Positions 51,460-63,232 are shown, counted from the first letter of the stretch. The stretch is 64,000 nucleotides of DNA from Promethearchaeota archaeon (GCA_016840085.1 JAEOTA010000085.1:1-64000), one strand, 5' to 3'. Numbers and translations are program-made. Notes: generated from the letters alone by a model not told the origin.

Positions 51460-52884
51460 CTAAAAGTTTAATCCCTTAAAGTAATTTACTGTTGTATAAA
51501 TATCTTTACCACCTTTTCTAAGATAATCCATAGCTTCTTCGATACCTTCAATTGTTAAGTCAAACATAGGAATTATGCTAGAGATGATCTTTCTAGTCCA
51601 TGGTGACCATTCAGGTCTTATAAGTTCAGGATTTAACCATACGATTCCATTTTTAAAATGATCCCCGAGCTCCTTGATATAATAGATTCCTGGTAATTCA
51701 TTTCTATGATAATAATATATCGAACCATATTTTTCAGTTAATTCCCAAGACGCCATTGCAGCGTCGCCCACTATGACAACTCTATATTTATTATCATATT
51801 TTCTTAGAAAATCGTTGAATTCAATAGCTTCATCAGGATTGCGTTTTGCATTGAAATAAATTGTTTCATAGATGCAATTATGGAAATAATAATGTTTAAA
51901 ATCTTTCCAATGAGACATATTATTTGCTGCTGAGAAAAGTAAATTAACGAGATGGGCATAAGGAGTCATACTACCTCCAACGTCCATTAAAAGGAGGAGT
52001 TTTACATCATTTTTTCTACGTTTATCAAATACTATTTCAATATCTCCACAGTTTTTAGCAGTTTTATCAATAGTTTCATCTAAATTTAACTCGTCTCTTT
52101 TTCCAATTTCTTCAAGCTTCTTGAGTTTTTTCAGAGCAACTTTGATTTGTCGTGTATCTAAAACGATATCTTTGCGATAATCTTTAAAAATTCTTTTTTC
52201 TGCTATTTGAACTGCTGTCCGCATACCTGAAGAACCACCAATTCTCATTCCCATAGGATTTTCTCCAGAATGCCCAAAAGGAGATGTGCCCTGCGTGCCA
52301 ATCCAATGATCTCCAAAATTATGTTCTTCATCTTGTCTTTGCATTAAATCTTCGAATTGTTTTTGCATTTCTTCGAGATTAAAAAATTGGTTTAACATTT
52401 CTTGGGATATCCCATCAATTTCAGCAATACCAAGGTTTTTCTGCAACCATTTCAATATTTCCTCCTTAATATCCTCTGGTGCGTTTATTAAAAGCTTACC
52501 TTCAAGTTTATCTCTGTATTTCTCTAACAGTTCTTGAAGTAATTCTTGTATATCTACAACGTTGAGGTATTGTTGATATTCTCTTAATAATAATTGCAAT
52601 CCTTCAATTAATTCTGGGAAAGTAATATCTTTCTCTAACCAATCCCAAATCTCGTGTTTAAGATCATCAGGGAATCTTATCATAGCATTTTTAAAGAAAT
52701 TAGCAAAAGAAATGTCATAGATGTCAAAATGATGTTCATTTTTGCATAAAATAGATCTTGAAGTATAATAAAACTCGACCATGTTATGGATAAGCCCTTT
52801 ATTTAACGCCTCTAATAGGGTAATATACTCTGTTATTGATACAGGAAGTCTTTCTTTAAGGTAATAAAAAAATTCGATAAACAT
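51460..52884 (-). CDS. VWA (CoxE-like) protein, MoxR partner
   Basis: WIGTQGTSPFGHSG, MDVGGSM MIDAS, YYFHNCIYE, VGDAAM, VWLNP. Confidence 0.9.
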   Translation of the reverse strand: MFIEFFYYLKERLPVSITEYITLLEALNKGLIHNMVEFYYTSRSILCKNEHHFDIYDISFANFFKNAMIRFPDDLKHEIWDWLEKDITFPELIEGLQLLLREYQQYLNVVDIQELLQELLEKYRDKLEGKLLINAPEDIKEEILKWLQKNLGIAEIDGISQEMLNQFFNLEEMQKQFEDLMQRQDEEHNFGDHWIGTQGTSPFGHSGENPMGMRIGGSSGMRTAVQIAEKRIFKDYRKDIVLDTRQIKVALKKLKKLEEIGKRDELNLDETIDKTAKNCGDIEIVFDKRRKNDVKLLLLMDVGGSMTPYAHLVNLLFSAANNMSHWKDFKHYYFHNCIYETIYFNAKRNPDEAIEFNDFLRKYDNKYRVVIVGDAAMASWELTEKYGSIYYYHRNELPGIYYIKELGDHFKNGIVWLNPELIRPEWSPWTRKIISSIIPMFDLTIEGIEEAMDYLRKGGKDIYTTVNYFKGLNF

Positions 52885-53112
52885 TTAATTAAATCTTAAT
52901 ATCTTCAATGGTCGTTATTTAAATAGAGTTAACCATATAATATTAGTTTTTGGTCAATATCAATACTTCTTTAATCTTCTTATAAAATAATTTGGTCTTA
53001 TAGTAATAAACTAAGTATAAGAAAAAATTATTTATAAACTTGAAAACCCAAAAACTCATTGATATTATCTGGATATTTATTATTTTGAATTATTATTAAT
53101 GGACGCATCGCT

Positions 53113-54210
53113 ATGAGAAAGATTTCATATCAAAATTGTAAAGAATTGGCAAAGCTAAGAGGGCTTGAATTAGTAATTTCTGAAAAAGAGTTTAATAAAC
53201 TAATAAATAGAAAAAAATCAGCTCTAAGCAAAATTAAAATTAAATGGAAATGTGACAAGGGACATCAATGGACTGCAACATATAACAATATAAAACAACA
53301 TGAATCTGGTTGTCCTTATTGTTATGGTAATGTTGCAATATCCTATCAGGTCTGTAAGGATTTAGGAAAACTAAAGGGATTTGAGTTAATAACCTCTGTA
53401 AATGAATTTAATATATTAATGAAAAATAGAACCAATGTTCCTAGTAAAGTTAAATTAAGATGGAGTTGTTTTTTAGGACATAAATGGAATGCAGCATATA
53501 ACAATATAAAGCATACAGATACGGGATGTCCTTATTGTTATGGTAATCTACCATTATCATATCAAAATTGCATAGAATTAGCAAAACTGAGAGGATTTGA
53601 AATATTAATATCTGAAAAGGAGTTTATAGGTTTAATGAAACAGAGAACTACAGTTCCAAGTAAAGTAAAATTAAGATGGAAATGCGAAAAGTGTCATGAA
53701 TGGTGTGCGATATATAATGATATACAACAAGGTAAGGGATGCCCAGAATGTGCTGAAGGTAAATATGAGGAAAGCTGTCGTTGGTATTTTGAAAAAATTT
53801 TCAAAGAAAAATTTAATAAAATCAAACTATCCAAATTAATACCTTATTATAATGGTCAGATGCATTTAGATGGATTTGCTTTAGTAATGATTGCTGAAAA
53901 TCAAATTAAGTTAGCTTTTGAATTTAATGGTATACAACATGATGAATTCCCTAATTTCTTTCATAAAACATATCAAGACTTTTTAGAACAACAACGATAT
54001 GATAATGAAAAGAAAGAATTATGTGAAAATAATGGAATAATTCTTATTGTTTTTCCCCAGAAAATTGATTTAAAAATGAATCATCCTGAAATAATTCAAA
54101 AATTCATTATAGACGAATTAGAAAGAAAAACTGGTTTTAGATTATCAAACATTCAACAATATAATCATCTGGTTGAATGGGCTAGTTGGAGAAGTTTAGA
54201 TAATTTTTAG
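53113..54210 (+). CDS. putative endonuclease: three Zn-ribbon repeats + PD-(D/E)XK/Vsr-like nuclease domain
   Basis: Three ~72-aa repeats (SYQ.C..L..L.G...W.C..GH.W.A.YN.I....GCP.C); C-terminal LDGF...LAFEFNGIQH...D.EKKELCENNGIILI. Confidence 0.75.
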   Translation: MRKISYQNCKELAKLRGLELVISEKEFNKLINRKKSALSKIKIKWKCDKGHQWTATYNNIKQHESGCPYCYGNVAISYQVCKDLGKLKGFELITSVNEFNILMKNRTNVPSKVKLRWSCFLGHKWNAAYNNIKHTDTGCPYCYGNLPLSYQNCIELAKLRGFEILISEKEFIGLMKQRTTVPSKVKLRWKCEKCHEWCAIYNDIQQGKGCPECAEGKYEESCRWYFEKIFKEKFNKIKLSKLIPYYNGQMHLDGFALVMIAENQIKLAFEFNGIQHDEFPNFFHKTYQDFLEQQRYDNEKKELCENNGIILIVFPQKIDLKMNHPEIIQKFIIDELERKTGFRLSNIQQYNHLVEWASWRSLDNF

Positions 54211-54215
54211 TAAAT

Positions 54216-54287
54216 TTATTCTATCACATATTCTGTAATACTAACCAGTAATCTTTCTTTTAAGTAATAATAAAATTCGATAAACAT
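54216..54287 (-). repeat. orphan duplicate of the VWA gene 5' end (23 codons)
   Basis: MFIEFYYYLKERLLVSITEYVIE* versus MFIEFFYYLKERLPVSITEYITL (start 52884); 18/20 aa and 47/60 nt identical. Confidence 0.85.
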
Positions 54288-54302
54288 TCTTAAAAATCAA
54301 AA

Positions 54303-55154
54303 TTAGGTAGGGAATTTTATTTTATCAACAACTATTTCAAAATCTTTCTCTTTCTTTATCAAAACGCCAAGAAATGGAATTCCTTTCTTTAATTCATCTA
54401 TTGTAATCCCGCTTTTTAGCAAAACTCCAATCCAATCAAGAAGTTCCGAAGTTGATGGCATTTTTCTTAATTTAGTAATCGCTCTTAAGGCATAAAAATG
54501 TTTTAAACATTGTTCTAATAAGTTCTGCTTTAGATTCGGATAGTGTAATCTGCAAATTTCTGCCATGAAGCTTTTAGAGGGAAATTCAATCCAGTGGAAT
54601 ACACATCTTCTTAAAAATGCATCTGGGAGTTCTTTTTCATTGTTAGATGTAATAATTACAATTGGTCTGTTTTTAGCTTTCACAAATTCTTTTGTTTCTT
54701 TTATATAAAATTCCATAACATCCAATTCCTGTAAAAGATCATTAGGAAATTCAATATCAGCCTTATCAATTTCATCAATTAATAAAACTACCTGTTCATC
54801 AGAAACAAAAGATTCGCCTAATGGGCCCAGCATTATATAATCGTGAATATTATCTACATCTCGATCATCACAGCCAAATCTACTATCATTTAATCTTTGA
54901 ACTGTGTCATACATATAGCACCCATCAATACCCTCACTCGTGCTTTTAATATTCCAGATAATTAATTTTTTACCTAAACTTTCAGCTATTGCATGCGCGA
55001 GCATTGTTTTCCCTGTTCCTGGCTCTCCTTTAACTAATAAGGGTCTTGCTAATGCTATTGATACGTTAACTATGTTCCTTAGTTGAGGATCAGCAAGATA
55101 TTTAACCCTATCAGTTTTTACGTCTCCTTGGAATTTATTAAATGTAGCATCCAT
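54303..55154 (-). CDS. MoxR-family AAA+ ATPase
   Basis: GEPGTGKT, LLIDEIDKAD, TSNNEKELPDAFLRRC. Confidence 0.93.
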   Translation of the reverse strand: MDATFNKFQGDVKTDRVKYLADPQLRNIVNVSIALARPLLVKGEPGTGKTMLAHAIAESLGKKLIIWNIKSTSEGIDGCYMYDTVQRLNDSRFGCDDRDVDNIHDYIMLGPLGESFVSDEQVVLLIDEIDKADIEFPNDLLQELDVMEFYIKETKEFVKAKNRPIVIITSNNEKELPDAFLRRCVFHWIEFPSKSFMAEICRLHYPNLKQNLLEQCLKHFYALRAITKLRKMPSTSELLDWIGVLLKSGITIDELKKGIPFLGVLIKKEKDFEIVVDKIKFPT

Positions 55155-60089: not shown

Positions 60090-61487
60090 ATGAATGGACC
60101 CCCCGAACCTTTTAAAATTAAGATGATTGAACATGTTGGAATGCCAGATCAAATAAGAAGAAGTGAAGCAATTAGAGAAGCTGGTTATAATACATTTCTA
60201 TTAAGATCCGAGGATGTTTACATTGATCTCCTAACCGATTCTGGTACATCCGCCATGTCAGATTATCAATGGAGTGGTCTTCTTTTAGGTGATGAAGCCT
60301 ATGCTGGAGCCCGAAATTTTTATAATCTCGAAAAAGCAATACAGGATGTACTTGGTTATAAATATATCGTTCCAACTCACCAGGGTCGTGGTGCTGAGCA
60401 TCTTATGTATAGTTACCTCGTAAAATCAGGTCAGCTTGTTCCAAGAAATATGTATTTTACTACTTCAAAACTCCATGTTGAGCTTCCTGGTGGAAAAATG
60501 GTTGATGTCATCATTGATGAGGCACATGATCCAGAAAATTTACATCTATTTAAGGGTAATATAGATTTCAAAAAATTACAAGCATTTATTGATGAATATG
60601 GAGTAGAAAAAATCGCTTTTGTGAATGTTGAAATGGACGTGAATATGGCAGGAGGGCAACCTGTATCTATGCAAAATCTTCGTGATTTACGAGAATTTTG
60701 CAACGATTATAATTTGAAAATAATATATGATGCTACAAGATCGAGTGAAAATGCATATTTTATTCGAGAACGTGAAAGAGGTTATGAAAATACACCAATT
60801 ATAGATATTTTGAGAGAAATGATGAGTTATTCTGATGGATGTATTTATAGTTCAAAAAAGGACTGTCTAGTAAATATTGGTGGTTTTCTTGCCACAAGTG
60901 ATAAGGATATTTTTGAACATTGCCGTAATATGGTTGTTGTTTATGAGGGATTGCATACTTATGGAGGTATGGCGGGTCGAGATATGGAAGCTGTAGCAAG
61001 AGGATTAAAAGAAAGCACATCATATGAATATTTAAAGTATAGGATAAATCAAGTTCGCTATCTGGGCGATTTATTGATGAAAGCAGGAGTTCCTATCGTA
61101 AAACCTACAGGTGGGCACGGTGTATTTATAAATGCATTAAAATTTTTACCCCATCTTGAAAGAAAACAATGGCCCGCCCAAACCCTTGCTGCAGCCATTT
61201 ATGAAGACTCGGGCGTCAGAAGTATGGAACGAGGTGCAGTATCAAAAGGACGAGATAAAGAAACAGGGGAAAACATCTTTCCAGCATTAGAGCTCGTGAG
61301 ACTCACAATTCCTCGAAGAGTTTACACAAACACACATATGGAGTATACAGCGGAGTCAGTAATTCGCCTATATGAAAAGCGAGACTCTATCAGAGGTTTA
61401 AAGATGGTATATGAACCAGAATATCTCCGTTTTTTTCAATCTCGTTTTGAAGTCCTAGAGTCATCAAAGTCATACTTAGAGACATAA
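60090..61487 (+). CDS. tpl: tyrosine phenol-lyase
   Basis: EPFKIKM, DLLTDSGT, THQGRGAE, KKDCLVNIGG, EGLHTYGGMAGRD, RSMERG, RLTIPRRVYT. Confidence 0.93.
   Translation: MNGPPEPFKIKMIEHVGMPDQIRRSEAIREAGYNTFLLRSEDVYIDLLTDSGTSAMSDYQWSGLLLGDEAYAGARNFYNLEKAIQDVLGYKYIVPTHQGRGAEHLMYSYLVKSGQLVPRNMYFTTSKLHVELPGGKMVDVIIDEAHDPENLHLFKGNIDFKKLQAFIDEYGVEKIAFVNVEMDVNMAGGQPVSMQNLRDLREFCNDYNLKIIYDATRSSENAYFIRERERGYENTPIIDILREMMSYSDGCIYSSKKDCLVNIGGFLATSDKDIFEHCRNMVVVYEGLHTYGGMAGRDMEAVARGLKESTSYEYLKYRINQVRYLGDLLMKAGVPIVKPTGGHGVFINALKFLPHLERKQWPAQTLAAAIYEDSGVRSMERGAVSKGRDKETGENIFPALELVRLTIPRRVYTNTHMEYTAESVIRLYEKRDSIRGLKMVYEPEYLRFFQSRFEVLESSKSYLET
61281..61451 (+). repeat. direct repeat copy 1 (3' end of tpl)
   Basis: 57 codons align to 63053-63223 with 26 nt differences (~85% identity) and 5 aa changes. 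Confidence 0.9.
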
Positions 61488-61648: not shown

Positions 61649-62729
61649 ATGCAGGAAATTAAGAAAATAAGCAAGAAAATGACTAAGATTTTATAATTTT
61701 AAGCTCTTTTAATTTATTGTTTATTGGAAATTTGTCGGGGTCCTGACTATTAATTTTCCGTGCAATTATCAGTGTAGTGAGAAGTCAAAAAGATACAGGG
61801 ATATACAACGTGGCTTTGGAATTGTGTTAGAGGGTATTGGAGAGAGACATAGTAATTATAACCAAATCTTATATAATGAATTATATTATGGGGATGTGGG
61901 GATTTATTTAGATAATTCAAATTATAATACCATTAAATATAATACTTTTTTTAAAAATCGAGTATTTATACAAGAAGAAAATAATTGTATAGGAAATATT
62001 ATTGAAGACAATTATTACGTAAAAAGAGCTTATTTTAATTGGTCTATTATAATTATAGCAGTAATAGTCTTAATAATCATATCTGTGTGTATTTTTTTAT
62101 ATTATAAATTAAAGAAGAAGAAAGCCTCTATGAAATCAGAAACTGAAGATGAAATAGCGGAGTCAGTCACTATCCAAAGTGAAACATTGATTTCTGAAGA
62201 AGAGCAGACTCCAAAGATATTTCCACATGAAATTGAACAAAAAGAGTCTCAAACTTCTATGGTTGAATCCATCTCTGTTGAAGATGATGTACCACCCCTT
62301 ATAGAGCAACTTCCTGAAATCAGTCCTGTAGATAAATTTAACATTTTTTTAAGCTATTCTACTTTAGATTCGCAGTATTTCCAAATAGAAAAGATTGTGG
62401 AGCTTCTGGAGCAATATCCCGAAATTGGTAAGATATATTATTGGGAAGCGGACAGTAAAGAAAATATCGTTGAATTTATGAATGAGACCTTAAAAAAAAT
62501 TAATGTATTTATTCTCCTCTGCAGTGAGAATTCACTCAAATCTAAAGCTGTGAATGACGAATGGCAAGCAGCGTTTCAGATGCGAAAAGAAGGATTATTA
62601 AAAATTATCCCTGTATATGAACAACAAGACCATATACCAAATATCTTATGGCATTTACTTAATGTAAAGTATACCAAAGACGACTTTAAAGGCTTTCTTG
62701 AGAACTTGCATCGTGAAATTTTGAGATAA
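61649..62729 (+). CDS. beta-helix (NosD-like) fragment - TM - TIR domain protein; 5' part degraded
   Basis: GIYLDNSNYNTIKYNTF repeats, TM + KKKK, TIR (IFLSYS...FILLCSENS..S.AVNDEW...IIPVY); frameshifted signal-like segment from ATG 61649; intact frame 61824-62729. Confidence 0.75.
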
Positions 62730-62911: not shown

Positions 62912-63232
62912 ATGGGAGTAATTGATAATTATCTTAAATCAAAAGAAAAGAAGAAATACTATTGCTTAAGCTGTTTCCTGTATACCAAGAAAAGATATGT
63001 TCTCCATGTTCTTGAAGATGAGACAGGAAAGGTATATAAATGTCCAAATTGTCCACCATTAGAGCTCGTTAGACTCACAATTCCTCGAAGGGTCTATACT
63101 AACACACATTTGGAATATACGGCGGAATCAGTGATTCGCCTATATGAAAAACGGGACACTATTAGAGGGTTAAAAATGGTATATGAGCCCCAATATCTAC
63201 GGTTTTTTCAGGCGCGATTTGAAAAATTATAA
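62912..63232 (+). CDS. chimeric ORF: CxxC...CxxC Zn-ribbon fused in frame to tpl C-terminal fragment
   Basis: YYCLSC...YKCPNC then LELVRLTIPRRVYT...LRFFQARFEKL. Confidence 0.6.
   Translation: MGVIDNYLKSKEKKKYYCLSCFLYTKKRYVLHVLEDETGKVYKCPNCPPLELVRLTIPRRVYTNTHLEYTAESVIRLYEKRDTIRGLKMVYEPQYLRFFQARFEKL
63053..63223 (+). repeat. direct repeat copy 2 (displaced tpl 3' end)
   Basis: See 61281-61451. Confidence 0.9.

Follow-up and report, generated by a model that had tools for sequence, protein, structure and literature searches.

A putative intron-less homing element that replaces the 5' end of a VWA gene in a Promethearchaeota archaeon

The locus and the inserted cassette

The window analysed here is the whole stretch of 64,000 nucleotides (nt) of Promethearchaeota archaeon DNA available as GCA_016840085.1 JAEOTA010000085.1:1-64000, and coordinates of the window refer to that whole stretch; the genome under study is labelled G000, and other genomes and contigs or stretches are labelled Gnnn and Lnnn. 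The subject is a cassette that joins a free-standing endonuclease gene to a replacement start of a VWA_CoxE gene, downstream of a MoxR-type ATPase gene; genomes and contigs that contain it are called carriers below. An initial annotation had described the order MoxR, dead 23-codon VWA start, opposite-strand nuclease and complete VWA gene, and this layout is confirmed by examination of open reading frames (ORFs), domains and coordinates. The features of the locus, with protein lengths in amino acids (aa), are as follows.

54303..55154, minus strand: MoxR-type AAA+ ATPase, 283 aa, the upstream host gene (Pfam AAA/AAA_5)
54216..54287, minus strand: dead (stranded) original VWA start, 23 codons plus TAA, with its ATG at 54287, 15 nt past the MoxR end
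53113..54210, plus strand: free-standing endonuclease gene, 365 aa (ORF, domain and structure evidence)
53125..53730, plus strand: three 72-aa zinc-binding repeats in the endonuclease (DUF4379, treble-clef type; PF14311, three stretches, E 2e-22)
53755..54147, plus strand: Vsr/EDxHD-like catalytic domain, aa 215-345 (E219, D253, E270, Q275, H276, D297)
52885..53112, no strand: 228-bp spacer between the divergent genes, part of the cassette (77-92% identity in six carriers)
52916..52923, minus strand: TATA-like box TTTAAATA, 32-39 nt upstream of the functional ATG, read directly
52795..52884, minus strand: cassette-borne replacement VWA start, codons 1-30 (0.90-0.99 identity among carriers)
52804..52848, minus strand: diagnostic codons 13-27 flanking the junction (Ser16 TCA, Ile21 ATT, Leu24 TTA)
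51460..52884, minus strand: complete VWA_CoxE gene, 474 aa, chimeric by sequence comparison, with a cassette head and a host body (Pfam)

The cassette is a 1.4-kb, apparently selfish insert composed of the nuclease gene, the spacer with its TATA-like box and the replacement VWA start. Over their first 20 codons the two VWA starts encode proteins identical at 18/20 positions (F6/Y6 and P14/L14 differ) and differ at 13/60 nt, with Ser16 written as TCA in the functional copy and AGT in the dead one; these figures from the initial annotation are reproduced by direct comparison. VWA homology in the dead start extends to about position 54224 (codon 21). The similarity is not due to chance, since in the 4.68-Mb genome the second-best ungapped match to the 60-nt start shows 22 mismatches. 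By ORF and Pfam checks the insert adjoins no integrase or transposase gene, no terminal inverted repeat bounding it was found, and there is no Rfam match at the locus, in agreement with the earlier statement that transposase, integrase, inverted repeats and intron structure are absent.

In a public sequencing run that may be the source sample (X1), contigs with zero mismatches span both junctions (52821-53137 and 53901-55142) at an even depth of 21-27. A joint from 52803 to 54256 in run X4, with 33 nt on its short side, may come from an uninterrupted related allele in the same sediment and is too weak to use.

Two VWA alleles and the insertion site

The cassette is present in four of the 54 genus genomes (G000, G076, G019 and G012), on the ENA contigs L145 and L146 and, as far as the contig extends, on the JGI contig L144. 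Its size and content are alike in five carriers, and each has a single copy. L145 and L146 encode an identical nuclease protein; in L146 the VWA ORF stops after 59 codons and is followed by a DUF362 gene, and the restored VWA gene is thus truncated in turn. Relatives with 77-96% VWA identity are mostly labelled Promethearchaeota or Promethearchaeia, that is, Loki-type Asgard archaea.

Separate trees were computed for the VWA body (nt 181-1131) and the head (codons 1-31, 93 columns). The carriers fall into four supported clades of the body tree, each with nuclease-free sisters, and monophyly of the carrier bodies is rejected (p-AU 8.4e-68). The head tree, which has a short alignment and a bootstrap that did not converge, places all carried starts in one clade (support 96/98) and groups the dead starts with nuclease-free host sisters. 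The dead start, or stub, of G012 has one mismatch in 69 nt to G063 and two to G029 versus 16 to its own functional gene, and that of L145 has 5/69 mismatches to G001 versus 18/69 to its own gene. The G000 stub groups with its nuclease-free sister G024, and differs at 6/60 positions from each of G024, G029 and G063 versus 13/60 from its own functional copy. The comparison with empty sites that the initial annotation had proposed is therefore positive: dead starts match the alleles of nuclease-free sisters, and the functional start travels with the nuclease.

The carriers' heads are 0.90-0.99 identical and their gene bodies about 0.76-0.80 (0.98 and approximately 0.76 for G000 against L145), with some carriers sharing sequence up to about codon 60. 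Between G012 and the nuclease-free G063, identity is 0.70-0.73 at nt 31-90 and jumps to 0.97 at nt 91-120. These sequence comparisons identify the dead start as the host's own allele and the functional VWA gene as a chimera. Synonymous divergence (dS) between carriers is 0.27-0.61 for the nuclease and 0.91-2.02 for the VWA body, which indicates that the nuclease moved more recently than the host genes diverged. The close hosts G000 and G076 have VWA sequences that are 95% identical, but their catalytic domains are only 90% identical. Because the G076 catalytic domain is closer to that of G012 (95%) than to that of G000, the nuclease appears to have been replaced repeatedly.

In G012, G076 and L145 the host sequence ends at the second base of codon 24 and is followed by the cassette with an immediate stop; this junction is identical in all three (..YTA AT, with a stop codon within 4 nt). 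It has been partly lost in G000 and G019 through separate short deletions, and the G000 junction is consequently seen at codon 20-21. The insertion point near codon 20-21 in the initial annotation is thus correct for G000 as eroded, but the true junction, preserved in three carriers, is at codon 24.

Ser16 TCA, Ile21 ATT and Leu24 TTA each occur in 6/6 carriers and in 0/28 other alleles. Across nt 25-84 the carried allele is 0.68 identical to the others, which are 0.80 identical among themselves, and the flanking windows are normal; the divergence of the carried allele is highest around the junction, where G000 windows have z values of -3.8 to -5.4 from the genus mean. Codons 13-27 of the carried allele are presumed to be a cleavage-resistant site. 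The switch of serine codon class is not unique, as Ser379 and Ser388 also switch in a few alleles. Two nuclease-free genomes, G031 and G068, contain host upstream sequence and host codons 1-8 followed by carried codons 9-30, the product that would be expected from recombination between the two starts. Loki_b32 (L272) resembles an older case of this type of chimera.

MoxR orthologues (85-98% identical) are present in 43 of the 54 genus genomes. G029 has an uninterrupted VWA gene directly after MoxR; in most other genus members the two genes are about 1 to 57 kb apart or on separate contigs, and uncoupled VWA genes have an upstream region of their own. In the carriers G019 and L145 it is this stand-alone type of upstream region, not MoxR, that lies before the dead start. 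Because two carriers have the insert in VWA genes that do not adjoin MoxR, the sequences identify the VWA 5' end as the target and the splitting of the operon as a side effect; the operon break in the initial annotation is real in G000 but incidental. In some genus members (L084, L097, L101 and L103) a 412-aa VWA paralogue, about 50-60% identical, follows MoxR, and the 474-aa form lies 25-57 kb away.

An AT-rich TATA-like sequence lies at the same offset in stand-alone VWA alleles and is absent in the MoxR-coupled G029, and the 228-bp spacer is presumed to hold promoters for both divergent genes. Since the TATA-like box shares its offset with stand-alone alleles, the promoter was probably borrowed rather than new. 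The recoded start and new promoter of the initial annotation are indeed carried along, but they look like a captured, divergent native allele and not like de novo recoding. In L147 and L148, where no stub is detectable, a 576-aa nuclease (61% identical) lies head-to-head with a VWA gene bearing TCA16, Leu24 and TTA27, plausibly a donor-type arrangement.

The endonuclease and its relatives

In Pfam, DUF4379 is the only match to the nuclease, and no LAGLIDADG domain is detected. The three zinc repeats have a 216-nt spacing at the DNA level and are presumed to form a DNA-recognition arm. Across 27 homologues the catalytic-domain residues E219, D253, E270, G273 and D297 do not vary and Q275 and H276 hardly do, and the conserved residues run in the same order as the EDxHD motif (order compared with PMC3239194). 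The C-terminal domain of an AlphaFold model of the nuclease (pLDDT 86) matches the RAP domain 9gek (Z 10.0), Vsr 1cw0 (Z 9.6, root-mean-square deviation 2.8, 111 residues aligned by VIA-align) and I-Bth0305I 3r3p (Z 9.3, root-mean-square deviation 3.2, 98 aligned, 13% sequence identity), and these three matches are tied, above unrelated structures. Foldseek with the whole model yields weak matches only (best E 7e-4), and a single-sequence model of the catalytic domain is poor (pLDDT 58). The ratio of nonsynonymous to synonymous substitution (dN/dS) is 0.19-0.27 in four carriers, as under purifying selection, and the catalytic residues are intact in five of five. The structural matches, the residues conserved in EDxHD order and this ratio therefore make it very probable that the enzyme is an active Vsr-like nuclease. 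A frameshift was considered for the G076 nuclease and rejected, as one repeat has instead been deleted in frame and the catalytic domain is intact. A homologue on a JGI contig (P0005) is 55% identical.

The initial annotation also raised the question of whether homologous nucleases are flanked by gene-end duplicates. An anchored search was applied to 57 testable loci of the family, picked by hidden Markov model (HMM) rank, and to 673 background genes; it misses stubs shorter than about 12 codons or more than 450 nt away. An adjacent duplicate occurs at 5/57 family loci versus 6/673 background genes, an enrichment with Fisher p 8e-4, or 5e-3 when two ribD loci are counted once. A stricter tblastn test detects straddling duplicates at 4/60 family loci. 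The duplicated targets are ribD, a Zn-dehydrogenase, an acyl-CoA ligase and an AIR-synthase-like gene, with ClpB in addition and SMC at a distance. No stub was found at two other G000 paralogues (C35 and C60).

Several further gene ends are associated with nucleases of this or other families. In L150:963-3646 a 386-aa homologue is flanked on one side by a ClpB-type gene and on the other by a repeat of that gene's last 150-184 or so codons (64% identical). Long nucleases of the DUF4379 family lie convergently, directly behind SMC, in several genomes (L131, L217, L221, L222 and L228), and two genomes with such an SMC-nuclease arrangement have a dead SMC 3' copy 6.5-9 kb away. The MoxR 3' end is duplicated around LAGLIDADG genes in G063 and G068 and around an HNH gene in L255 (L119:1600-3593, L120:2473-3668 and L255:4216-5916). 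Three genus genomes (G019, G067 and G077) also have a MoxR gene broken near codon 139-140, and MoxR is split in L277 (L116:3-736, L117:8114-8997, L118:796-1679 and L277:6028-6909), and in G019 and G067 a long DUF4379 nuclease lies on the opposite strand after the broken gene; recoding, a shared lesion or a nuclease scar are possible explanations of the break. Elsewhere in the window, the C-terminal 55 or so residues of a 465-aa tryptophanase-like gene (60090-61487) are repeated in a 106-aa ORF (62912-63232), and this duplicate brackets a membrane/TIR-like gene (61824-62729).

A homing model, its alternatives and its parallels

The cassette is interpreted here, with a probability of roughly three in four, as an intron-less homing element that would replace the 5' end of its target gene by cutting and conversion, with the stub as one homology arm. 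The suggestion in the initial annotation of an intron-less selfish element that keeps its target functional gains support from comparative genomics, through the chimeric gene and the cross-lineage spread. The nuclease gene, together with the 228-bp spacer and some 30 initial codons of a divergent VWA allele, would make up the mobile unit. When a chromosome segment of a carrier meets an empty allele, the nuclease would bind via its zinc repeats and make a cut close to codon 24 of the uninterrupted AGY-Ser16/Met21/Met24 allele. Of the broken ends, the left would pair with the donor's stranded start or with MoxR and the right with the donor VWA gene just beyond the junction, repair would copy the cassette in, and recipient codons 1-23 would become a new dead stub. 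As a host-type allele, the dead start is presumed to be sensitive to the nuclease and to serve as the left homology arm. The carried allele differs on both sides of the junction and would not be recut. The element could exit by recombination between the two starts, or there could be conversion without insertion, to give an allele of the G031/G068 type. It may have originated through capture, by a nuclease gene, of the promoter and start of a stand-alone VWA gene that lay head-to-head with it, the arrangement seen in L147.

A number of observations weigh against this model. The cassette has a low prevalence (4/54), 52 of the 57 family loci have no adjacent duplicate, and windows of single alleles elsewhere reach z near -4 to -5, because the VWA gene is mosaic in other parts too. 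In G000 about 30 inserts are bracketed by a short, diverged duplicate of a gene's 5' or 3' end, on the same strand as the gene and at a distance of 0.6-12 kb from it (e.g. L124-L143). Seven of the nine annotated inserts of this kind are non-nuclease, with radical SAM, URO-D, peptidase C25, RibD-like, glycerophosphotransferase, Ras-like GTPase and LRR proteins as cargo; the nuclease inserts are one LAGLIDADG gene and one DUF4379 nuclease gene (at the SMC 3' end), and no integrase is seen in any of the annotated inserts. The VWA start itself has its codons 1-14 duplicated, with a NosD/beta-helix cargo gene in between in L280 and approximately 1 kb of non-coding DNA in between in G063. G019 and G068, which belong to different clades, have in common a nucleotidyltransferase cassette located at the 3' end of VWA, and non-nuclease cargo therefore also crosses lineages. 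Given the 52/57 loci without a stub, the 30 or so duplicates, most of the annotated ones around ordinary cargo, and the NosD case, the layout alone does not identify homing in this lineage. The argument for homing depends on spread across lineages at an unchanging junction, a carried tract that is short, divergence centred on the junction and conservation of the enzyme.

The main alternative is that the nuclease is a passenger in a general process of gene capture, in which incoming DNA recombines within a conserved gene by homology on one side and is joined illegitimately on the other, leaving the stub, after which the cassette would spread through normal allelic recombination on both sides. 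Under this reading the nuclease is cargo with a role in defence or repair, and the "recoded" start simply the donor's allele. The G000 duplicates around mostly non-nuclease genes, the NosD-like cargo with its VWA 1-14 stub and the lack of a stub at most family nucleases are all consistent with such a process, as are VWA 3' ends of 30-86 codons duplicated downstream of small, unrelated cargo genes in many relatives and in another family (L033:5290-5514, L032:2997-3191, L120:10514-10708, L034:9295-9381, L035:3214-3471, L036:649-860 and L037:2169-2384). However, passive capture does not predict a carried tract of only about 90 nt with host sequence directly after it in four lineages, fixed differences clustered on both sides of the junction, or resistant codons persisting alone in the nuclease-free G031 and G068. 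Nuclease genes are also roughly tenfold enriched for adjacent stubs over background, and the enzyme shares its fold with a known family of homing nucleases. Passive capture as the whole explanation is accordingly unlikely, although the two processes are combinable, and general capture may have made the first copy that homing then spread.

SXT/R391 elements integrate at prfC and restore the gene, and the cassette could likewise be the remnant of an integrative element with an attachment (att) site in the VWA 5' end, having one cargo gene left or an integrase acting in trans. A direct repeat of the gene start does flank the insert, and in L135 (G000:C73:507-5088) three to four tandem 3'-end copies of one small gene with differing cargo between them resemble accretion. 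However, no integrase is present in the five carriers (an integrase in trans was not looked for), and the size and content of the cassette are constant. The repeats are only 78% alike. Their longest shared run, of 16 nt, is at codons 1-5 and thus distant from the junction, around which they diverge most, whereas an att core would show the reverse; this origin is very improbable. Still less credible is an assembly chimera of two strains or a decayed local duplication, even though G000 is a metagenome-assembled genome with 7.6% contamination. The assembly chimera, which the initial annotation had named as a possible refutation, is rejected on the evenly covered perfect contigs that bridge both junctions and on the identical layout in four other, independently assembled carriers. 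Local duplication is rejected because it could not make the dead copy resemble a sister species more than its own gene.

The initial annotation took phages as the main precedent for the homing strategy. In phage T4 SegF/gene 56 and S-PM2 F-CphI/psbA, free-standing endonucleases carry out intronless homing. There, as proposed here, the cognate gene is cut and a resistant allele co-converted without an intron, but the phage enzymes sit between genes without interrupting or duplicating their target, whereas the Asgard element inserts into its target and rebuilds it. Closer parallels are found in yeasts and fungal mitochondria. In the yeasts Torulaspora and Lachancea, WHO elements replace the FBA1 3' end and strand the recipient's old end (Coughlan et al. 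2020, PMC7282813). In both systems a free-standing, unspliced nuclease gene (in some WHO elements on the opposite strand) separates a full-length chimeric host gene from a stranded fragment, the host gene's two parts give discordant trees and the nuclease has a zinc-finger part; resistance through allelic difference, presumed for the Asgard element, is a further parallel. The Asgard element, a probable case of homing, differs in replacing the 5' end, and hence in carrying a promoter, and in residing on an archaeal chromosome, without meiosis, with a stub of 24 codons. Its nuclease is of the Vsr/EDxHD type with DUF4379 repeats, whereas that of WHO is an intein-derived LAGLIDADG enzyme related to HO/VDE, and the tandem clusters built by WHO are not seen at the VWA site. 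With a different nuclease, gene end and target, it lies outside the WHO family proper.

The mORFs of fungal mitochondria, at atp6 in Allomyces macrogynus and atp6, atp9, cox2 and nad3 in Glomus (PMC3630166), also consist of an endonuclease ORF that brings a foreign gene terminus, with the displaced native terminus better matching a close relative. They differ in being organellar, in replacing C-termini by means of LAGLIDADG or GIY-YIG enzymes and in sharing the strand of the host gene, in many cases in frame with it and transcribed together with it, whereas the Asgard nuclease is on the opposite strand. The features of such gene-end replacers, namely a nuclease outside any intron or intein, a recipient-derived stub and a chimeric gene with discordant trees, are all found at the VWA locus. 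In its enzyme the element resembles the EDxHD homing endonucleases, which include I-Bth0305I and Vsr-like nucleases of fractured genes (Taylor et al. 2011, PMC3239194), through the Vsr-like C-terminal fold, the E-D-x-H-D order and the repeated N-terminal DNA-binding modules. However, it has three DUF4379 repeats where I-Bth0305I has NUMOD2 motifs, and it is associated with neither an intron nor a split intein. No paper on such elements in archaea was found in the literature covered, which excludes most subscription journals, and term searches of two papers on Asgard mobile elements (PMC11529989 and PMC8813620) returned no description of this layout. The strategy itself has already been shown in yeast and fungal mitochondria.

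The element would bring to the chromosomes of archaea, in the lineage nearest to eukaryotes, a third structural type among homing elements, one that involves neither intron nor intein and that is the source of yeast HO. Replacement of a 5' end requires a carried promoter, and the element would therefore take over control of the host gene. Its spread implies frequent contact between alleles of Lokiarchaeia whose gene bodies are saturated at silent sites. The nuclease offers a predicted target (codons 13-27) with natural alleles that would be sensitive or resistant, and a modular arm of 72-aa zinc repeats that varies in copy number (two, three or more). A further warning from the findings is that vertical inheritance does not hold for the ends of genes in these genomes. 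It is a speculative and rather unlikely extension that Loki-type Asgard archaea maintain a general economy of gene-end replacement, in which unrelated nucleases (Vsr/EDxHD-DUF4379, LAGLIDADG and HNH) home into conserved gene ends and the breaks they make, whether in cis or in trans, also promote capture and dissemination of non-nuclease cargo, with about 30 duplicates per genome. If this is the case, homing would be a main engine of gene flow and operon break-up in the Loki-type lineage.

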